Assembly: GCF_006345805.1 (NCBI RefSeq)
Contig: NC_043010.1
Span: 11,036,001-11,100,000 of the forward strand
Direction: 5' to 3'
Origin: Octopus sinensis
Lineage: Eukaryota
DNA length: 64,000 bases
The translations under genes and the position numbers were made by a program. Below are positions 8,300 to 59,391 of this stretch, piece by piece; position 1 is the first letter of the stretch, and the number at the start of each line of letters is the position of its first letter. The notes under the pieces were generated by a model, which was given only the letters and a program-made list of their open reading frames with translations, did not search any database and was not told where the DNA came from.

Positions 8300-8515
8300 A
8301 TGTATGTATGTATATACAACACACATATATATCTATATATATATATGTGTGTGTGTATGTATGTATGTATGTATATACCTACATATATATATATATATAA
8401 TATATATATTATATATATATATGTGTGTGTGTGTGTATGTATGTATATACACACACATATATATATTATATATATATATGTGTGTGTGTATGTATGTATG
8501 TATGTATATACCTAC

Positions 8516-24087: not shown

Positions 24088-24852
24088 GGTCGAGCTGTCA
24101 GAATCGTTAGCATGCCGGGCGAAATGCTTAGCAGTATTTCGTCTGCCGCTATGTTCTGAGTTCAAATTCCGCCGAGGTTGACTTTGCCTTTCATCCTTTC
24201 GGGGTTCGATTAAATAAGTACCAGTACGCACTGAGGTCGATATAATCGACTTAATCCGTTGTCTGTCCTTGTTTGTCCCCTCTGTGTTTAGCCCCTTGTG
24301 GTAGTAAAGAAACAGGTATTCATCTGCCGCTATGTCTGAGTTCAAATTCCGCCGAGGCCGACTTACCTTTCATCCTTCGAGGTCGTAAATAAGTACCATT
24401 ACGCAGTCGATATAATCGACATCGTGGTCTGTCCTGTTTGTTCCTTTGTGTTTACCCTTGTGGGTAGTAAAGAAATAGGTATTTCTTTCATCTGCCGTTC
24501 GTTCGATTTAAAATTCCGCCGAGGTCGACTTTACCTTTCATCCTTTCAGGGTCGATTAAATAAGTACCAGTTACGCACTGGGGTCGATATAATCGACTTA
24601 ATCCGTTTGTCTGTCCTTGTTTGTCCCCTCTGTGTTTAGCCCCTTGTGGGTAGTAAGGAAACAGGTATTTCATCTGCCGCTACGTTCTGAGTTCAAATTC
24701 CGCCGAGGTCGACTTTACCTTTCATCCTTTTGGGAGTCGATTAAATAAGTACCAGTTACGCACTGGGGTCGATATAATCGACTTAATCCATTTGTCTGTC
24801 CTTGTTTGTCCTCTCTGTGTTTAGCCCCTTGTGGGTAGTAAAGAAATAGGTA
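24088..24852 (+). mobile_element. Head-to-tail array of SINE family B (1 full plus 3 headless units)
   Basis: Junctions GTAAAGAAA(C/T)AGGTATT(T)CATCTGCC at about 24315, 24478 and 24665. Confidence 0.88.
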
Positions 24853-25213
24853 TCATTGAAGGGTGGTTCACTATATTTTCTGCTGATTAATCGATCAATT
24901 GATAAAATTTAACCATGAACACATCAACATGCATATCAGAACCAGCAGTGAGTCTCTGATAAATAAATAATTAGATAAATAAATAAATAAAAATAATGTA
25001 TTATTATAGTAGATGATTAAGGCAGTGAGCTGGCAAAATCCTTAGCTCAATGGACAGAGCGTTTAGCAACATTTCATTTGTCTTTACGTTCTGAGTTCAA
25101 ATTCTACCAAGGTCAACTTTGCTGTTCACCCTTTCGAGAGTGAGGAAATTAGTATCGGTTGAGCACTGAGGGTTGATGTAATCAACTTTACCCCATCCCC
25201 AAAACTGATGGCC

Positions 25214-25562: not shown

Positions 25563-25762
25563 TAGTTAATCCAAACATGAAAGCACAAAAAACACAACGC
25601 AAGGACGTGGAACAAATATAGTATTATTGGACGCTCAGGAAAGAAGGCGGGTTTAACGTTTCGAGCAGAGCTCTTCGTCAGAAACATAGGAGAAGGAAAG
25701 ATCCAGAGAAGGGAAGACAGAGGAAAAAAATCGCCAACGGTACACACGCGGTCACATTTTGA
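25563..25762 (-). mobile_element. (TA)n-embedded short Penelope-like pLTR element
   Basis: About 200 bp of non-microsatellite sequence between (TA)n tracts containing a minimal HHR. Confidence 0.7.
25651..25685 (-). ncRNA. Minimal type-I hammerhead ribozyme
   Basis: GTTT-CTGACGA-A-GAGC(TCT)GCTC-GAAAC-GTT-AAAC: intact core, stem I GTTT/AAAC, palindromic stem III ACGT. Confidence 0.8.
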
Positions 25763-33289: not shown

Positions 33290-34192
33290 ATTAAAATAGT
33301 AATCTGCATATCATACTTAAAGCAGATATACCATTGAAAGCCTTCAAAACTGCTGTCTGCTGATAAAGCTCAAAGAATCAGAAATATGTATTTCTGATAC
33401 AGCGTATTTCTTTATTGCCCTCAGGGGGCTAAACACAGAGAGGACAAACAAGGACAAACAAACGGATTAAGTCGATTATATCGATCCCAGTGCATAACTA
33501 GTACTTAATTTATCGACCCCGAAAAGATGAAAGGCAAAGTCGACCTCGGCGGAATTTGAACTCAGAACGTAGTGGCAGATGAAATACCTATTTCTTTACT
33601 ACCCACAAAGGGCTAAACACAGAGAGGACAAACAAGGACAGACAAACGGATTAAGTCGATTATATCGACCCCAGTGCGTAACTGGTACTTCGTTTATTGA
33701 CCCCGAAAGGATGAAAGACAAAGTCGACCTCAGCGGAATTTGAACTCAGAATGTAGCGGCAGATGAAATACCTATTTCTTTACTACCCACAAGGGGCTAA
33801 ACACAGAGAGGACAAACAAAGACAGACATAGGTATTAAGTCGATTACATCAATCCCAGTGCGTAACTAGTACTTAATTTATCAACCCCGAAAGGATGAAA
33901 GGCAAAGTCGACCTCAGCGGAATTTGAACTCAGAACGTAGTAGCAGACGAAATACTGCTAAGCATTTCGCCCAGTATACTAACGTTTCTGCCAGCTCACC
34001 GTATCAGAAATACGTTGTTAGAAATACTACACCCATTGTTGGATAACATTCATGAGCTTCTGAAATATTTCTGAGTTTTTTTTTCTTCATACTTTACATC
34101 TACAAGAGATGCCATCTTGAGACAAAAACTACAGTTTAGAAGGCTTTGTAGAGTGTATATGCTTTTAGTATGATATGCAGTTTGCTATTTTA
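33290..34192. mobile_element. Old MITE-like element with ~60-bp imperfect TIRs, disrupted by a SINE B array
   Basis: 33291-33352 TTAAAATAGTAATCTGCATATCATACTTAAAGCA.. is the approximate reverse complement of 34131-34192. Confidence 0.55.
33405..34000 (-). mobile_element. Head-to-tail array of SINE family B (3 units, ~184-bp period)
   Basis: Junctions GGCAGATGAAATACCTATTTCTTTAC at about 33581 and 33765. Confidence 0.9.
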
Positions 34193-35875: not shown

Positions 35876-36857
35876 TTAACCCTTTCGTTACTGTATTTAT
35901 TTTGAGATCTCGGTGTTTCTTTCAATTATTTTAAATATAACAAAGAATTTAATAAAATAACTTAGTTATCATTCAGCTAGTGCTAGGAACATAAATTGTG
36001 ACTAAGGTTTGGTGGAAGATTCTAATTCAAAACTTATGAAAAACAAGACATTTGTACTACAGAATCAGAGGCAGTTTCAGCCAGGTTGGTATCAAAAGAG
36101 TTAAGAATTGTTTCTCTATTATATTTTAACCCTTTTGTTACCTTATTTTGTTGAGACAATCTGTGTTTGTTTCAATTAATTTTAAAATAACAAAGAATTT
36201 AGAAAAATAACTTAGTTATCATTCAGCTAGTGTTAGGAACGTAAATTGTGAATAAGGTTTGGTGGAAGATTTTAATTCAAAACTTATGAAAAACAAGACA
36301 TTTGTACTACAGAATCAGAGGCAGTTTCAGCCAGGTTGGTATCAAAAGAGTTAAGAATTGTTTCTCTATTATATATTTTAACCCTTTTGTTACCTTATTT
36401 CTGTTGAGACAATCTGTGTTTGTTTCAATTAATTTTAAATATAACAAAGAATTTAGAAAAATAACTTAGTTATCATTCAGCTAGTGTTAGGAACATAAAT
36501 TGTGACTAAGGTTTGGTGGCAGATTTTAATTCAAAACTTATGAAAAACAAGACATTTGTACTACAGAATCAGAGGCAGTTTCAGCCAGGTTGGTATCAAA
36601 AGAGTTAAGAATTGTTTCTCTATTATATATTTTAACCCTTTTGTTACCTTATTTCTGTTGAGACAATCTGTGTTTGTTTCAATTAATTTTAAATATAACA
36701 AAGAATTTAGAAAAATAACTTAGTTATCATTCAGCTAGTGTTAGGAACATAAATTGTGACTAAGGTTTGGTGGAAGATTTTAATTTAAAACTTATGAAAG
36801 GCATTTGTATCTCAGAACCAGAGCCGGTTTCAGCCAGATTGGTAACGAAGGGGTTAA
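35876..36857. mobile_element. Tandem array of four piggyBac-like MITEs (~250-bp period)
   Basis: Units TTAA-CCCTTT(C/T)GTTAC...GGTATCAAAAGAG or GGTAACGAAGGGG-TTAA starting at 35876, 36126, 36378 and 36632, with a near-identical spacer GAATTGTTTCTCTATTATAT. Confidence 0.85.
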
Positions 36858-40958: not shown

Positions 40959-41159
40959 TAGCCTCTGCACGCATTTTTTTTCTCTCCTTGTTTCTCTCCG
41001 TGTTTCCTTTCTGTGTATCTTTCTGTTGAAGAGCGTAGGCTCGAAACGTAAAAGACTTGTTTTACTTATATTCCTGAGTGCCATACTAATACAATTGTTT
41101 GTTTGTACTCCACCTGCCTTCGTCTTTTGTTTATTTTCATAAAGCTTCCCGTTATATAA
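40959..41159 (+). mobile_element. Short Penelope-like pLTR element (HHR A6U family)
   Basis: Homologous to 48671-48850 and 50026-50213; ends CCCGTTATATA. Confidence 0.72.
41018..41055 (+). ncRNA. Minimal type-I hammerhead ribozyme, A6U core variant
   Basis: TCTTT-CTGTTGA-A-GAGC(GTAG)GCTC-GAAAC-GTA-AAAGA. Confidence 0.7.
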
Positions 41160-49686: not shown

Positions 49687-50025
49687 TACTTTAGCCTTCA
49701 CATTGCACCATTGTAATAAACAACAATCGCTGTCATTCATTTTCAGTCTTCCAGTAAAACCTGTCTGCCCATAGTGAAACATTACTTTGCTTGGAAACAA
49801 GTGAGGGTTTGTGATTAGAAGGGCATCCGGCTATTGAAAAGCAGGCTTGTGGATTCCATGCAGTCCTTGCAAGCATGAAAGTGAATGTTAAAATGATGAT
49901 GATGCTGATGCTGATGATGATGGTGATGATATGTGTGTATGTGTGTGTGTGCGCATATGCATATAGATATATATACATATATACATATGTACATACACAT
50001 ACACATATACATATACACATATATA

Positions 50026-50213
50026 TCGCCATGATAGAACCTTAGCCACTACACACATTTTTTTCTCTCCTTGTTTTTTCTGTGTCCCTTTCTGTCGAAG
50101 AGCGTAGGCTCAAAACGTAAAAGACATTTTCAATTCCTGAGCATTATACTAATACATCTGTTTGTTTTGTACACCACCTGTCTTCGTCTTTTGTTTCTTT
50201 CGTAAACTCTCCC
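50026..50213 (+). mobile_element. Short Penelope-like pLTR element with A6U HHR (50088-50123, G12 decayed)
   Basis: CTTT-CTGTCGA-A-GAGC(GTAG)GCTC-AAAAC-GTA-AAAG; (TA)n on both sides. Confidence 0.74.
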
Positions 50214-50619
50214 TATATATATATATATATATATATTCACATACTTACACACATACTCAAACATGTATACATATATGCATATACATGATTATATACACAC
50301 CTATATTTGTGGCAGGGGTCGTGTGTTTGTCCGTGTATGCCTTTGTTTGTATGTATACATACTTACATAGATGCCTCCATACAAATGCTTTTGTACTTAA
50401 GAAGCAGATCTCTGAATATTTTGATACATATATAAGTGTCATATCTGTACTAATTCATAAGAATACATAAATATGATGTAGTTATTTTAGAGCTATATCA
50501 AAACTTTCAATAGCATGGCATGAATGAAATAAATTATGATACCTGACCAGTGGATGATATCCCTGCAGAATACAAATTCAATGGACAAGGATTAGAGTTC
50601 AAACATTAGTGTGTCCATT

Positions 50620-50848
50620 TTGACCCTTTAGTGTTCACATTATTCTACCAAAATTAATGCTTCTTTATCCACGTTGTTTTGAACTAATCATGCATTATCT
50701 TGTAGCTATGAGATTTTGATGAGGTAGCTGTTAATTTTTAAAACGATATTGTGGGGTTGGTGTGAGAGACCTGATCTGGTCAGTTTGAACATAAAACAGG
50801 CAGAATACTTTTGGCCGGATATGGCCGGTTTAAATGCTAAAGGGTTAA
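50620..50848. mobile_element. piggyBac-like MITE
   Basis: TTGA-CCCTTTAGTGTT ... AATGCTAAAGGG-TTAA termini. Confidence 0.6.
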
Positions 50849-51518
50849 TGATATTCTGTCAACAGCTGAGATAATAGTGAAGAATACATGTCTAATGCAC
50901 TGTTGGCTACAAACATGCAAATTATAATAGACTTGCACGACATGATGAACGCAGAGAAAGGGAACAGTAGTGTAATATGTAAATCCAGTGGTGAACAGCT
51001 TGAGTTCTTACATGAAAGATCCTTAGCATCAATAATATTGCTTATTAGAATTGTAGAGGAAAGGAAGGGTTGATGCTGTGACACTCATAGCATTCCCAGA
51101 AGTATTTGCTGCATGAGAGAAGTGAAAAGAAATGAGTAGGAAAATCAAAACAATGCAATGGATTTCCTTTCCATAGGGATTCGGAAAGTAATATACAGTG
51201 TTAGTCAGAAAAGACGAGATTTTTAATTTCATTACAGGCTTCAGATTTGTTCTTTGATTCTTTTATGGGTTTCAGTCATTTGACTGAGGCAATATTGGGG
51301 TTCTGTGCTCAAGAGTTTTAAGTCAATTATATCGAACCCACAGTACTTGTATAGAGTTAGACTTCTGTTTATCAAATGGGTTTGTTAAACCATTTAAGCA
51401 CGAAATTATGCAAGTGAATGCTTTGATAAACACTGGAAGACACAAAAAGACATACACACAAGCACATGCATGCACACACACACATGCTTGTATATATACA
51501 CACACACACACACATACA

Positions 51519-52166
51519 GTGCAGGAGTGGCTGTGTGGTAAGTAGCTTGCTTACCAACCACATGGTTCCGGGTTCAGTCCCACTGCGTGGCACCTTGGGC
51601 AAGTGTCTTCTACTATACCCTCGGGCCGACCAAAGCCTTGTGAGTGGATTTGGTAGACAGAAACTGAAAGAAGCCCGTCGTATATATGTATATATATATA
51701 TATGTGTGTGTGTGTGTATGCTTGTGTGTCTGTGTTTGTCCCCCTAGCATTGCTTGACAACCGATGCTGGTGTGTTTACGTCCCCGTCATTTAGCGGTTC
51801 GGCAAAAGAGACCGATAGAATAAGTACTGGGCTTACAAAAGAATAAGTCCCGGGGTCGATTTGCTCGACTAAAGGTGGTGCTCCAGCATGGCCGCAGTCA
51901 AAATGACTGAAACAAGTAAAAGAGTAAAAGAGTATATATATGTGTGTGTGTATGTTTGTGTGTCTGTGTTCATCCCCCTAGCATTGCTTGACAACCGATA
52001 CTGGTGTGTTTACGTCCCCGTTACTTAGCGGTTCGGCAAAAGAGGCCGATAGAATAAGTACTGGGCTTACAAAAGAATAAGTCCCGGGGTCGATTTGCTC
52101 AACTAAAGGTGGTGCTCCAGCATGGCCGCAATCAAATGACTCAAAGAAATAAAAGAGTAAAAGAGA
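51519..52166 (+). mobile_element. SINE family A with tandem duplication of its 3' half
   Basis: Full copy at 51519-51933 followed by a repeat of the post-microsatellite half at 51934-52166. Confidence 0.9.
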
Positions 52167-52530
52167 ATATACATATGCAATAGGCTTCTTTTAGTTTCCA
52201 TCTACAATAGCCACTCACAAGGCATTGGTCGACCTGAGACCTGAGACCATAGTAGGAGACACTTATACAAGATGTCACCCAAAACCACGAGGATGGAAAG
52301 AAAACCTCTTAACAACAGAAACCTGTCTGCAACTATGTGGTTAAGAAGCTCACTTTGCAATGACGTGATTTGCAGTTCAGTCCTACTGCATGGCATCTTC
52401 ATGTCTTCTACTACAGGCCTGGGCAGAACAATACCTTGTGAGTGTCTTTGATAGGTAGAAACTAAACTGAGTGGATGCCCAATGTGTACATATGTATGTA
52501 TGTATGTATGTATGTCTATCTATCTATCTA

Positions 52531-52571
<41 letters not shown>

Positions 52572-52691
52572 ATATATATATATATATATACACATATATA
52601 TATACATATATATACCTATATATACATACATATATACATATTAGAATATATACATATATATATATTAGAATATATACATATATACATTAGA

Positions 52692-52770
<79 letters not shown>

Positions 52771-52873
52771 CATTATATACATATATATATATACGTATAT
52801 ATATATATTTATATATTTATATATATATATATATATATTTATATATTTTATATTATATATATATATATATGTA

Positions 52874-52917
<44 letters not shown>

Positions 52918-53481
52918 TATATATACACACATACACACACACACACATGAGGTGGTATCAAGAGGTTGCTAGACTAGTTATGTTTAATAAAAAACTTATT
53001 TACTTAAGTTTTAATATCAGGAGTAAATATATTTACTCATGTACAAATATACACATGCATACATATACACATGTATACATATATTTAAGTCCACGCACAC
53101 ATAAACACGCACACACACATACGTCCATACTGAATTAGCCATCATATAATCCTATATCTGATTCGAAGATTTTATCTGTTGTAAAAGTTACTTCAAAAGC
53201 CCTTTACAACTTAACACACATAACATGTATATTATATATATAAATATATATATATATATATAACAATAATAAATCTCTAAGCGAGGTATAAACAGTAACT
53301 GCTCTGTAATATAAGCGGGATCAGCCATCTGAATGTGGCTAGGGACAGGGTGGGGTGGTGGGGGTGCTACTGATGCATTTAGCCCCAGGCGACTATAGAC
53401 GTCACCAGAAGAGCCGACACCATACGGTGTCCTTGCTAGCCTGCAAAGGGAGATCAGCCTCTCCGAAGATACGGATGCTAC

Positions 53482-53522
53482 ACACGGACCGGTTTCGAGG
53501 TGGTCGCCTCTCGTCAGCGCAT
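53482..53522 (-). ncRNA. Type-I hammerhead ribozyme (inverted copy)
   Basis: Reverse complement of ATGCG-CTGACGA-GAGG(CGACCA)CCTC-GAAAC-CG-GTC-CGTGT. Confidence 0.9.
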
Positions 53523-53688
53523 GGCAAGCACCGTTCTTCGTTGAGGGACTTCCTCTACAGGCTAGAAATATATAGATTTTCACAGTAAACACAGTCACAG
53601 GCGTCGAAAATCTGTTCGATAACAATAGCGAAAATCTATATATTTCTAGCCTGTAGAGGAAGTCCCTCAACGAAGAACGGTGCTTGCC

Positions 53689-53729
53689 ATGCGCTGACGA
53701 GAGGCGACCACCTCGAAACCGGTCCGTGT
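53689..53729 (+). ncRNA. Type-I hammerhead ribozyme; predicted cleavage after C53724
   Basis: ATGCG-CTGACGA-GAGG(CGACCA)CCTC-GAAAC-CG-GTC-CGTGT; palindromic stem III ACCGGT. Confidence 0.92.
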
Positions 53730-54048
53730 GTAGCATCCGTATCTTCGGGGAGGCTGATCTCCCTTTGCAGGCTAGCAAGGACACCGTGATGGTGTCGGCT
53801 CTTCTGGTGACGTCTATAGTCGCCTGGGGCTAAATGCATCAGTAACACCCCCACCACCCCGCCCTGTCCCTAGCCACATTCAGATGGCTGATCCCGCTTA
53901 TATTACAGAGCAGTTACTGTTTATACCTCGCTTAGAGATTTATTATTGTTATCGAACAGATTTTCGACGCCTGTGACTGTGTTTACTGTGAAAATCTATA
54001 TATTTCTAGCCTGTAGAGGAAGTCCCTCAACGAAGAACGGTGCTTGCC

Positions 54049-54088
54049 ATGCGCTGACGAGAGGCGACCACCTCGAAACCGTCCGTGT
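54049..54088 (+). ncRNA. Type-I hammerhead ribozyme (1-nt deletion in loop III)
   Basis: CTGACGA-GAGG..CCTC-GAAAC-C-GTC-CGTGT. Confidence 0.82.
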
Positions 54089-54258
54089 GTAGCATCCGTA
54101 TCTCGGGGAGGCTGATCTCCCTTTGCAGGCTAGCAAGGACCCGTGATGGTGTCGGCTCTTCTGGTGACGTCTATAGTCGCCTGGGGCTAAATGCATCAGT
54201 AACACCCCCACCACCCCGCCCTGTCCCTAGCCACATTCAGATGGCTGATCTCGCTTAT

Positions 54259-54297
<39 letters not shown>

Positions 54298-54628
54298 TGA
54301 GGAGACCGCCTTCGGTCATGAATGACCATGGGATTGCACCTAGAAAGTTACCCTGCGAGGCACAAGTCTGGGCAAGGTTGTTTATGGAAGGCCAGCAGTT
54401 ACCCATGCATACCGGCCTCACCATTCCATGCCACCGATGTTATCCAAGGGAAAGGTAAAGAGGCTGATACAGCTTGGCACCTGTGACACCACAATTCATT
54501 TCTACAGCTGAGTTAACTGAAGCAACATGAAATAAATTATCTTGCTCAAGAACACAACACGCAGCCTGGTCCAGGATTCAAACTCAGAACCTCATGATCG
54601 TAAGCGCAACGCTCTAAACACTGAGCAC
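54298..54628 (-). mobile_element. SINE family D (tRNA head plus CORE domain)
   Basis: Reverse strand GTGCTCAGTGTTTAGAGCG..GAGTTTGAATCC..GTGTTCTTGAGCAAGA..ACTCAGCTGTAGAAATGA. Confidence 0.85.
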
Positions 54629-54804
54629 ATATATATATATATATATATATACATACATATATATATATACATATATATATATTTACATATATATATATAC
54701 ATATATATATACATATATATATACGTATATATATACATACATATATATATACATATATATATACATACATATATATATACATATATACACACATATATAC
54801 ACAC

Positions 54805-54845
<41 letters not shown>

Positions 54846-54874
54846 TATATACATATATACATATATATACATAC

Positions 54875-54909
<35 letters not shown>

Positions 54910-55039
54910 CATATATATACATATATATACATATACATATATACATATATACATATATACATATATATATACATATACATATATATACATATACATATAC
55001 ATATATATATATACATATGTCTGTGTGTATGTGTATAAA

Positions 55040-55398
55040 GCAAGGTCCAGAATCAGAGGGCCTTAGAGTTAACCAAGGAAAAACCAGTCTCAGTAAGTAG
55101 AAGAGCAGACAAATTACAAATCCCTTCAGATAGATGGCCTTGCTCAATCTGTAGAAAAGACATTGATAGAAACCCTATATGACGTACCCAGTGTAAGCTA
55201 TAGACACATAAGAGGTGCACCAATATCAGAGGAAGGTTAACAAGGAAAATAGCTTTTGTGTGTGGAAGATGCACAGGTGCGCAGTGAGGTAAGCTAGAGG
55301 TAGTAGATAGTTACCATTATCTAAGTGACCAAGTTAGTAGCAGAGGTGGATGCTCTGAAGGCGTAGCTCTGAGAATAAAAATAGGCCTTATAAGGAAA
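55040..55398 (+). pseudogene. RTE LINE internal fragment (end of RT, PHD-like Cys finger, downstream region)
   Basis: [70 protein letters not shown]; stops and frameshifts. Confidence 0.82.
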
Positions 55399-55403
55399 GT
55401 TGC

Positions 55404-55711
55404 TGAGACCCCCTTTGGTCATGACTGACCATGGGATTGCACCTAGAAAGTTACCCTCCCATGCATGGGTCGCCCATGCATACCGGCCTCCCCTCTCCAC
55501 ACCACCAGTGTTATCCAAAGGAAAGGCAAAGGGGCCGATACAGCTTGGCACCAGTGACGTTGCAACTCAATTTTTACAGCTGAGTGAACTGGAGCAACAT
55601 GAAATAAAGTGTCTTGCTCAAGAACACAACACTCAGCCTGATCCAGGATTCGAACTCACAACCTCACGATCGTAAGCTCGATGCTCTAACCACTGAGCCA
55701 TGTGCCTTCAC
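55404..55711 (-). mobile_element. SINE family D
   Basis: GTGAAGGCACATGGCTCAGTGGTTAGAGC..GAGTTCGAATCC..GTGTTCTTGAGCAAGACACTTTA on the reverse strand. Confidence 0.88.
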
Positions 55712-56205
55712 ATAGGGATAGTAATTCTTAATTAATTCTATGTCTTTTTTTATCCTTTAATTTGTTCATTTTTTTTTATATTTTTAATTGTTTCATTCAG
55801 AGATCTGTGGCCATGGTGGAGCACTACCGTCAAGAGTTTAGCAAAACATATTAACCTCTAGTACCTATTTTTTAAAATATGGGACTTATTCTATCAGCTT
55901 TTTTTTTGTCAAACTGCTCAGTTATGGTGGGGGGGGGCGTAAACAAACCAACACCAGTAATCAAGTGGTGTGGGAGACAAACACAAAGACACATACACGT
56001 AGGCACACACACACACACAAATTGTCTGCCTGCCAAATTCACTCAGAATGCGTTGGTCAGCGTTGTTGCCATACGCCCAAGGTGCCACGTACTGGAACTG
56101 AAACTCGGAGCCATGTGTTCGAGAACCACAGTTCCTACCCTACATCCGCATCTGCGCCTTTTATAATTCACATATTCAAATGGAAACAAATGCGTTTACA
56201 CACTC

Positions 56206-56618
56206 GGATCTTTTCCTTTTGAACGGCAGTTTTTTAAAAATAATTTCCACGTATCTAAACACTTTTAAACTTCGTATACTGGTAGAATGTGTTTATAAAA
56301 CATCTTTTTCTCTTGGCTTTATTGAGAAAATTCTATAGTTTGTAAGATATTTGTTTGTTTTTTTTCCTTCAATTTCTGCAATTTCAACCAATCAATGACG
56401 TCTATTGAGGTGAAAACATTCTGTGCCGTATGAATATGTCCCTCGTTTAAGAAACAGATTCGGTTTATTTACATTTCTGAAGAAAAAAATATACCCTTCC
56501 CCCACCCCTAACCCTAAAACAGATTGAAATGCAATAGATCGATACTAGGGTCATAATTATGGGTGACAATTTCATATGAGGCCACTAGAAAAGACTGCCG
56601 TTCAAACCGAAAAGATCC
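56206..56618. mobile_element. Non-autonomous DNA transposon, ~25-bp TIR, 8-bp TSD (Merlin/MULE/hAT-like)
   Basis: TIR GGATCTTTTC..TTTGAACGGCAG / CTGCCGTTCAAACCGAAAAGATCC; TSD ACACACTC at 56198-56205 and 56619-56626. Confidence 0.85.
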
Positions 56619-56896
56619 ACACACTCAAATGTTTCCCCAACACATTCATACTGCTTCGCACATAAACACAAATATTCTTACACATTACAAAACCATTATA
56701 ATACAAACATACACGACCATATACAAACACGTATGCCCTCTTACTCAAAAACCTTTTTAGGCATACGCGTACCTGCATACATTGATACTCACATGCACAT
56801 ATCTCACTCAGACAAGCACATTAAACACTCATAAACGTTTTTGGCTCACAACAACATACACTTTTCACACACGTTTCAAACGATGTATAACAATTT

Positions 56897-57610
56897 GGTA
56901 CTACTTCAGAACAGCGGTCCCGGTGCGTGCACTTGCGCAGTCGTGCACTTGCGCAGTCGCGCATCCGCGCTAGCTAGTCGTGACTAGTCGATCCTACACC
57001 GACTACCTAGCAAAATAAAAAAAAAACACAAAATAAATAATTTTTTTATAGGCGTAGGAGTGGCTGTGTGGTAAGTAGCTTGCTTACCAACCACATGGTT
57101 CCGGGTTCAGTCCCACTGCGTGGCATCTTGGGCAAGTGTCTTCTGCTATAGCCCCGTGGCCGACCAATGCCTTGTGAGTGGATTTGGTAGACAGAAACTG
57201 AAAGAAGCTTGTCGTATATATGTATATATATATATATATGTATTTGTGTGTATGTTTGTGTGTCTGTGTTTGTCTCCCTAGCATTGCTTGACAACCGATG
57301 CTGGTGTGTTTACGTCCCCGTCACTTAGCGGTTCGGCAAAAAGAGACCGATAGAATAAGTACTGGGCTTACAAAAGAATAAGTCCCGGGGTCGATTTGCT
57401 CGACTAAAGGCGGTGCTCCAGCATGGCTGCAGTCAAATGACTGAAACAAGTAAAAGAGTAAAAGAGAGTAAAGGTAAATAATTTTTGTTAAACAAAGTAA
57501 ATAAAACACAAAAACACAAAGTAAGGATCGACTAGTCACGACTAACTAGCGCGGATGCGCGACTACGTGACTGCGCGCACCGGGACCGCTGTTCTGAAGT
57601 AGTAAGTACC
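56897..57610. mobile_element. MULE-like MITE with ~90-bp GC-rich TIRs and 9-bp TSD, containing a SINE
   Basis: GGTACTACTTCAGAACAGCGGTCCCGGTGCG.. inverted at about 57523-57610; TSD TAACAATTT at 56888-56896 and 57611-57619. Confidence 0.88.
57051..57472 (+). mobile_element. SINE family A nested in the MITE
   Basis: Full-length copy; AAATAATTTTT on both sides. Confidence 0.92.
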
Positions 57611-58506
57611 TAACAATTTTTGTCATGTTTCTCTTCCGCAGTTGTACAAAATAAAACCTCATATCTCGGATGTTACCAGAGAAAATGATCACGAAATAAT
57701 TACTACAATCATGGATCAGATATAAAAACAATAAAATTTTAGTTGAATTTTTTTATAAAGTTTCATCGTTTCGCTTCTTTTCAATTTTTATTTTAAAATA
57801 TTATGTTTTCCCAAAACTGATTACTTCAGACTAAATCTCACGGCTTTAACACACGCACAGCAGTGAAGATAACAAGAGTTACCTCCCCGGTATTTTCTCG
57901 AATCAGAATCTACTTTCACTATGCAACGCACTTGCCTTGCTTTTATTGATTGGGGTTTTTTCTCTATGCAGCTAAATAGCAGTCGCCTGTTTGTGCAGCT
58001 AAGAACAGCATAAGGGAGTAACTGTTTCACTGGTTCCGGTCATTGCTCTGCAGCTGTGCAATGGTGTTGCCTTAAGTATGGTTTTTAGTTAGTCATATCG
58101 ACCCCGAATTCTTATTTATTTCAATCGATGACGTAAGATGAAATGCCAAGGAGATACTGAGTTGAAGGGAAACAACTCCGTCGAAATATTGCAAGATATC
58201 TGTTCGGAAGAACGGATTTCGATGGTGTGTAGGCGCTACACTCGTTTCCTTCCTTCTTTCCTTCCTTCCATCCATCCATCTATCCATCCATCCATCCATC
58301 CATCCATACATACATACATATTTGAGTAGTTGAATGAATTATCTTATTAAGGATAATTCGAATTAACCAATACCTGGGTAGCAAATTCACATCAGAAAAA
58401 ATACGGTTGACGTTACGTGCTTTCGTGTGGAAATTTGTAAGTTTATTTTGAAAATATAAATATATGAAAGAATGGAGCTAAACGACGAATTAACAAAATT
58501 CCTTTA

Positions 58507-58575: not shown

Positions 58576-58775
58576 GCAAGGAACTTATGTCAACATCAGA
58601 ATGCACAAAAAACTTTTAGATGATAATACATACATACATACATACATACATACAAACAAAAAAACAAACAAATACAGATCTAAGTCTTCACTGGAATAAA
58701 AACACACGCACTATATATTTGGTGTTACTTTGCTTCAGCGTTATTTATTTTTTACATTAATCTTAATCTTATTTC

Positions 58776-58820
58776 GGCCAGAGTTCTTTCGTCACACTCC
58801 TGTGACCTCATCAGTGGTCC
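58776..58820 (-). ncRNA. Minimal type-I hammerhead ribozyme with CUC site
   Basis: CCA-CTGATGA-G-GTCAC(AGGAGT)GTGAC-GAAA-G(AA)C-TC-TGG. Confidence 0.72.
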
Positions 58821-59391
58821 TTTGCTTTCTTCTTTCTTATTTGTGTGTCTCTCCTTACTAACGGTCAGCCATTTTGTAGTTTGTATTTCTATTGTATGTG
58901 TCTTCATTTGCGCATGCATATACCTCTATGTGTGTCTATGTTTAGTTAGTGTGTGTGTGTGGGGAAGTGCCTGTAATATTTGTATCTCCTGTTTATATAC
59001 GTTCGTGTAACACCAAATATATAGTGCGTGTGTTTTTTTTATTGGCTAAACTGGCAAAATGACCATTCCTAAACACAACAATATCTGTTTCAACACACGA
59101 TTTCACATCAAAAATCTTGCAAAACAAATCTATTTTATTAGTTACAGTGAAAATAGATTAACTAGTAAAGAAAGCGTTGAAGCATTTGTGAGTGAAAGAG
59201 ACAGTTCTGGAGTAAATTAATGAAACTAAATGCATATAGGGTTGCAACATAGTTAAGTAATAAAGATGTTCCCTTCACACCTGTATAGTTCAAGGTTTGT
59301 TTGCATTGTGTGGCCTCTTGGACAATTGTCATCTACATTAGACTTGGATAAGAGCAAAACTTATCAGAGAAATTTCGTAGATGGTAACTTT

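Follow-up and report, generated by a model that had tools for sequence, protein, structure and literature searches.

The window analysed here, a 64,000-nt stretch of Octopus sinensis contig NC_043010.1, contains at 53260–54260 the GC- and CpG-rich island noticed in the initial annotation (GC 51.5%, compared with 37.0% across the window, and CpG o/e 0.85, compared with 0.53). Self-alignment of the island recovers the 360-bp unit that had been proposed, and reveals three unit copies inside (TA)n: one inverted copy, followed by 1.76 plus-strand units. The description as an island of 360-bp copies stands, but the copies do not form a plain tandem on one strand: 53260–53627 is inverted, and the hammerhead of this minus-strand copy (copy A, core at 53517) had been overlooked. 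The features of the locus, including an end segment of the kind described for Penelope-like elements (PLEs), are as follows.

53228–53262, no strand: (TA)n target tract, left flank
53260–53627, minus strand: copy A, inverted 5′-truncated arm (369 nt; unit positions 315–360 then 1–323; 3′ end outward)
53260–53306, minus strand: PLE-type tail of copy A (unit positions about 277–323; at this insertion end only; the concept is that of passages in PMC8557442 and PMC11167929)
53476–53530, minus strand: intact type-I hammerhead of copy A (core at 53517; predicted cut after C53487)
53628–53629, no strand: head-to-head inversion junction with 2 extra bases, adjoining a AGATTTTC/GAAAATCT hairpin
53630–53989, plus strand: copy B, one complete 360-bp unit
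53646–53775, plus strand: long imperfect rod extending hammerhead helix I
53681–53735, plus strand: hammerhead B (core CUGACGA at 53694; predicted cut after C53724)
53725–54083, plus strand: predicted 359-nt cut-to-cut monomer
53990–54260, plus strand: copy C, partial tandem unit (unit positions 1–274; its end is the no-tail site)
54041–54094, plus strand: hammerhead C, core intact at 54054 (predicted cut after C54083)
54253–54297, no strand: (TA)n target tract, right flank

Over 259 aligned sites, a single substitution separates copy B from copy C, and 3–4 separate copy A from either, in agreement with the young insertion that had been claimed. Relative to copy B, copy C carries three 1-nt deletions, one of which lies in helix III and breaks its palindrome. 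Run contigs over the deletion sites contain the missing bases, and these contigs stem mostly from other copies; the deletions are either mutations or assembly errors. The longest ATG ORFs on the circular unit encode 30 aa (plus strand) and 67 aa (minus strand). Searches did not reveal a PLE protein match in the 64-kb window, a tRNA gene in 50000–58000, or Pol III A/B boxes or a tRNA head on the sense strand of the unit. The island is best explained as a single young insertion that belongs to a 360-base repeat family without protein-coding capacity.

Directly to the right of the island lies another repeat, present in two copies that are 82–89% alike (54297–54626 and 55400–55698). Other short tandem arrays occupy 24134–24853 (185-bp unit), 33405–33955 (184 bp), 35876–36844 (254 bp), and 51699–52171 (234 bp); a loose scan of these four arrays found no plain type-I core.

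The CUGACGA/GAAAC/GUC type-I hammerhead that had been assigned to each copy is present, with cores including those at 53694 and 54054. The positions given for C17 (53724 and 54083) and the length of the predicted monomer (359 nt) agree with ours, and all ten stems named in the initial annotation pair fully when G–U pairs are allowed. A canonical type-I hammerhead is described in PMC4209133 as having a 6-bp helix I, a 4-bp helix II, a short helix III closed by a palindromic loop, and a CUGANGA/GAAA/UH core, and the motif of the 360-bp unit has this form. Specifically, hammerhead B has a helix I of 6 bp with a UGC/U internal loop, a helix II of 4 bp with a 6-nt loop, and a palindromic helix III. 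A type-I descriptor parses 6 times in the window, whereas 30 block-shuffled versions of it yield none. The Rfam search that had been suggested as a check did not bear the motif out: no Rfam hammerhead family (e.g. RF00163, Hammerhead_1) matches the island at the gathering threshold or at E up to 10, and the identification therefore rests on anatomy and covariation. Elsewhere in the genome RF00163 has 7 matches (L201–L207), which show no similarity to the families A and B defined below; among them, L204 is a fold-back, and L206 and L207 look tandem.

A dispersed family and two sister families

A genome search returned at least 132 matches to the unit (40 of 2053 candidates scored), and a 31-letter core pattern has 67 sites within 2 mismatches, compared with 0 in the control. 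For family A, the family of the window unit, we compiled 82 loci from the best or first-listed matches, a sample that is biased to young, well-matching copies. These loci are dispersed over many contigs, have unrelated flanks, and include arrays of up to 3.9 units. Two sister families were reached through high-depth loose ends of run contigs: family B, whose unit measures about 352 bp, whose copies are about 91% alike, and which has 62% identity to family A; and family C, with a 356-bp unit, many copies 99–100% alike, and 82% identity to family A. Family C appears to be the best candidate for a currently active retrozyme.

The unit is covered at low depth by contigs of X4 and X6, runs that we guess to be RNA. 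One X6 contig spans the unit joint; tandem DNA yields the same joint, and the contigs cannot tell a circle apart from it. A different run-contig joint, at 53802–53967, goes back 166 nt in two runs, which suggests a shorter tandem derivative without hammerhead.

Covariation and predicted RNA fold

The initial annotation had proposed copy number and covariation as a further check; carried out within the same genome, this yielded the dispersed family described above and compensatory changes across the three families. In particular, an alignment of 16 sequences from families A, B, and C has 93.8% of cells paired (slid controls, 20–53%) and both sides changed in 7 of 17 pairs, and an alignment of 32 family A and B sequences has 93.4% of cells paired and both sides changed in 5 of 16 pairs. 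In family C (L279–L308), which is very young and has a perfect 8-nt helix III palindrome, the C3–G8 pair of the family A core is replaced by U3–A8, a covariation known in hammerheads (PMC4209133). The base of helix II is mismatched in families B and C (unpaired in 11 of 16 rows). Of 142 sequence contexts, 128 have a self-complementary helix III, which spans 6 nt in family A and 8 nt in families B and C. Since the three families are related, the covariation counts only a handful of independent events. On the evidence of compensatory change in three families, with the structure retained throughout, the hammerhead appears to be kept under selection.

Folded as a circle, the monomer (53725–54083) has a predicted energy of −116.5 kcal/mol with 58% of positions paired and z = −3.8 against 100 dinucleotide shuffles (opposite strand, z = −1.9), in line with the highly structured circle that had been anticipated. 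Under nearest-neighbour folding, a model that leaves tertiary contacts and Mg outside, the core of family A is predicted to pair with the palindrome of helix III with P above 0.94, in the circle as in the tandem. For an intact tandem, a double hammerhead is predicted to be 13 kcal/mol better than two single ones and to lie 10 kcal/mol above the minimum (15 kcal/mol at the window locus). The predicted locking of the core would speak against efficient cleavage. In a transcript entering the island from the left, arm A is predicted to fold onto the plus arm through 317 pairs, with loss of hammerhead B, making the window locus an unlikely source of circles.

Insertion footprint

Nearly all arms of the 82 family A loci, 133 of 145, stop at unit position about 274–277 or about 317–323, and arm ends lie mostly in TA tracts (printed flanks, scored by eye). 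Outward-facing head-to-head arms are present in 58 of the 82 loci; 8 of the 58 have a non-standard end and were set aside, and each of the other 50, all scorable, bears a 42–49-nt tail at one end and not at the other. The same one-end tail is found in 9 of 9 scorable loci of family C, among 17 loci with 1 set aside. A partial tandem, an inverted 5′-truncated copy, and a one-end tail make up the insertion pattern described for PLEs in PMC8557442 and PMC3846280, and in vitro work in PMC11167929 describes a PLE enzyme that nicks AT-rich DNA, extends both strands, and starts reverse transcription at two internal sites that bound the tail. Mobilisation of the unit family by a PLE-type process appears well supported by these correspondences.

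Compared at subfamily-diagnostic positions in 41 loci, inverted arms differ 7 times in 358 comparisons, tandem units 16 times in 356, and different loci 12244 times in 37371. The arms of one insertion share alleles, indicating that both arms come from one template variant; arms drawn from unrelated RNAs of the whole pool are ruled out at ordinary loci by the 7 of 358 differences. Alternative sources of the allele sharing could be a single master active at a time, or gene conversion. By hand count, 13 of 23 loci have the tail-less arm as the one that extends further 5′, and at the window locus neither arm contains the other, so that a fixed fold-back order fails; the first cDNA folding back and being copied cannot account for the inverted arm in every case. 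Two RNA-templated priming events would fit these arms best.

Among 88 arms that reach the ribozyme, 82 cross its cut site, the longest arm measuring 1390 nt, which argues that the template is not a cut linear monomer. A pile-up of 5′ ends at the cut site was considered and rejected (6 of 88; hazard 0.068, against 0–0.087 in other windows), and the accumulation of ends at unit position 1 stems at least in part from the query boundary. The template is likely a circle or an uncut multimer, both of which fit.

Penelope-like elements and a candidate helper

The initial annotation had named one outcome as contrary to its reading, namely that all copies are pLTRs of an RT/GIY-YIG ORF. The loci sampled do not show this outcome. 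Flanks of about 1.5 kb contain PLE coding sequence at 2 of the 82 loci of family A, at none of 50 records for family B, and at none of 30 for family C, and neither of two PLE families of this genome, PLE-X and PLE-Y, carries the unit as a regular end. Specifically, the unit is found at 0 of 20 long PLE-X loci and at 1 of 30 short ones (the chimaera described below), and 29 of 30 PLE-Y loci lack it; these counts rule out the unit as the pLTR of PLE-X or PLE-Y. Comparison of PLE-X with the end sequence of the unit gives no significant shared sequence, the best match being 17 AT-rich nt.

At L028, a tail-less unit arm is joined head-to-head, with no TA between, to a 5′-truncated PLE-X arm that has the tail. 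L010 and L028 share both flanks and are one insertion; an amplified family of such chimaeras was rejected, with only 2 matches, both from that insertion. At L116, the unit adjoins a PLE-Y fragment in the same orientation, and at L262 a family A arm is joined to a B-like arm. Such mixed junctions may be mixed-template events or neighbours joined through shared TA targets and deletion; because L116 adjoins a different PLE, the latter can explain them.

PLE-X has copies about 98% alike (1742 candidates) and a 1044-aa open frame containing RT, a CxxxxCxxC linker, and GIY-YIG at the C-terminus (both Pfam scores below the curated cut-offs). The definition of Neptune/Nematis-like elements comprises a C-terminal GIY-YIG with a CX2-5CxxC linker, with the clade taken from RT phylogeny. 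One PLE ORF found in the genome has 98% identity to a protein with the label Octopus vulgaris, in support of the octopus host named in the initial annotation. PLE-X insertions lie in TA targets, and 14 of 15 loci scored by eye conform to the one-tail rule. Being young and having intact RT and GIY-YIG, PLE-X is the best candidate helper, an assignment that we make tentatively and with the odds somewhat against it.

Several further observations concern PLEs in this genome. PLE-X has a long asparagine-rich N-terminal region (L065 4710–5450), a feature that PMC3846280 describes for rotifer PLEs. Its 3′ UTR (L065 about 8310–8420, ORF sense) contains hammerhead-like pieces (CUGA-like words, a short stem, and GAAA twice) that do not add up to a plain type-I motif. 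In the window, 58695–59084 is an ORF-less fold-back remnant of the PLE-X 3′ end (89–91% identity) with the tail on its right arm. Motifs resembling the minimal hammerheads of PLE ends occur at 41001–41090 (plus strand), where the motif matches PLE-Y at its 3′ end (by eye), and at about 25600–25720 (minus strand). PMC13282606 tabulates 31 PLE families for Octopus; its passages covered here do not mention a ribozyme or hammerhead.

Relation to known elements

The octopus unit shares with the metazoan non-LTR retrozymes of Cervera and de la Pena 2020 (PMC7229834) an ORF-less tandem unit of a few hundred bp (350–390 bp in mussel), a type-I hammerhead per unit, a structured predicted circle, and PLEs in the same genome. 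It differs in that expression and circles are shown there and are putative for the octopus family, in the low copy number of family A, and in a GC content of 51.5%, compared with the under 50% stated there. Inverted arms and tails are not described in the passages of that paper covered here, in which mobilisation by PLEs is only proposed. With a tandem unit in the range of about 150–450 bp, at least two consecutive type-I hammerheads (B and C), no ORF, and dispersed copies, the element has the composition that characterises retrozymes.

Vertebrate non-LTR retrozymes (Li, Clavereau, Pollet 2026, 10.64898/2026.07.22.740005) are likewise described as non-autonomous, PLE-linked, and arranged in monomer-to-multimer arrays. 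The PLE link rests there on pLTR similarity and co-occurrence, with no mollusc in the sampling described, whereas for the octopus unit it is the insertion footprint, PLE-X and PLE-Y having no pLTR homologue of the unit. Tails, molluscs, and octopus are not mentioned in the covered parts of that text.

Endonuclease-bearing PLEs (Craig et al. 2021, PMC8557442; Frangieh et al. 2024, PMC11167929; PMC3846280), in the parts of these papers considered, share with the unit the partial tandem, the inverted 5′-truncated copy, the one-end tail, (TA)n targets, and two RT starts. Unlike them, the unit has no RT/GIY-YIG ORF, a canonical rather than a minimal hammerhead, and a tail of 42–49 nt rather than 30–40 nt; among the loci sampled in a non-exhaustive search, it does not form the repeat flanking an RT and GIY-YIG ORF that marks an autonomous PLE. 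Chlamys elements such as MRC1 (PMC8557442) are also non-autonomous and PLE-type, with head-to-tail multicopy insertions, but are described as algal, with 3′ sequence common with a helper, and most Chlamys elements as lacking hammerheads.

The retrozyme reading of the initial annotation is supported: the tandem family lacks an ORF, carries a canonical type-I hammerhead, has copies on many contigs, and shows a PLE-type insertion anatomy. These features support placing the octopus element among the metazoan non-LTR retrozymes, which would make it a known class in a new host group. No cephalopod retrozyme was found in the open-access literature; subscription papers, Repbase, or supplements may hold one.

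Template and mechanism

We propose, with a probability of about 0.7, that the unit is copied in trans by a Penelope-like RT/endonuclease and that the RNA template is likely circular. In such a process, tandem copies would be transcribed, and two hammerheads, paired with each other through the palindromic helix III, would excise a monomer of about 360 nt, which a host ligase would close, the core in the monomer being predicted to be locked. The PLE enzyme would nick both strands of a (TA)n tract; both nicked ends would act as primers on a single RNA variant, the first at the tail end and the second about 47 nt upstream; and each cDNA would run for a variable length through the cut site before the two truncated ends are joined. 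A narrower version, in which the PLE-X enzyme primes twice, from both nicked strands of a TA tract, at two fixed sites of one circular ribozyme RNA, continues past the ligated cut site, and links both cDNAs head-to-head, while a palindrome switch locks the circle and only the dimer cuts, is in our judgement somewhat unlikely to hold in every part.

The nearest competitor keeps the PLE-mobilised family and replaces the circle by an uncut multimeric array transcript, with a hammerhead that is slow or protein-aided. Cleavage is not required for a PLE in vitro, where hammerhead mutants still insert and uncut RNA is the main substrate (PMC11167929), and among frog retrozyme dimers cleavage was observed in only 1 of 9 (10.64898/2026.07.22.740005). 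An uncut template would suit the family A core, predicted to be locked even in tandems, the arrays of up to 3.9 units are possible sources, and read-through of the cut site fits equally well. However, compensatory changes maintain the hammerhead in three families without an ORF, and such maintenance needs selection on cleavage; the ends of arms scatter over the unit, with no ceiling from array length; and retrozymes of like build yield abundant circles in coral and mussel, as described in PMC7229834. We consider an uncut multimeric template unlikely.

It is far less probable that the units are pLTR stumps of an autonomous PLE whose full-length copies fall outside the sample. Inverted arm, tail, and partial tandem are pLTR anatomy (PMC8557442, PMC3846280), Octopus has many PLE families (the 31 of the PMC13282606 table), and 40 of 2053 candidates were scored in the genome search. 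Yet the units of tandem arms run head-to-tail into themselves, and the tail continues into the next unit rather than into an ORF; the 24 single-arm loci have no common 5′ flank (by eye); PLE coding sequence is scarce near the units (2 of 82, 0 of 50, and 0 of 30); the unit is carried by 0 of 20 long PLE-X loci and by 1 of 30 PLE-Y loci; and the hammerhead is canonical, not of the minimal pLTR type (PMC4209133).

A DNA-level minisatellite, made by unequal crossover and fold-back repair and carrying a relic hammerhead, would suit the close likeness of arms within a locus and the local tandem amplification from a PLE end discussed in 10.64898/2026.07.22.740005, but is scarcely credible and largely refuted by the arm-end statistics, given dispersed copies with unrelated flanks, 3′ ends fixed at two sites, 5′ ends truncated at random, insertion into TA targets, a one-end tail, and arms of which neither is always nested in the other.

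Implications

In the passages of PMC7229834 and 10.64898/2026.07.22.740005 considered here, the mover of animal retrozymes and the circle as its template are still only proposed, and PMC11167929 leaves unresolved the route from PLE integration to head-to-head arms with one tail. The octopus family supplies countable footprints for both: the tail is strictly confined to one end, a single variant gives rise to both arms, fold-back follows no fixed order, and arms continue across the cut site. The same genome also offers a young, intact candidate helper and the very young sister family C. If double priming by PLE-X on a circular ribozyme RNA is true, the missing helper of animal retrozymes would be named, a 360-nt minimal template would be at hand for reconstituting PLE integration, and the insertions would record how an animal retrozyme moves.
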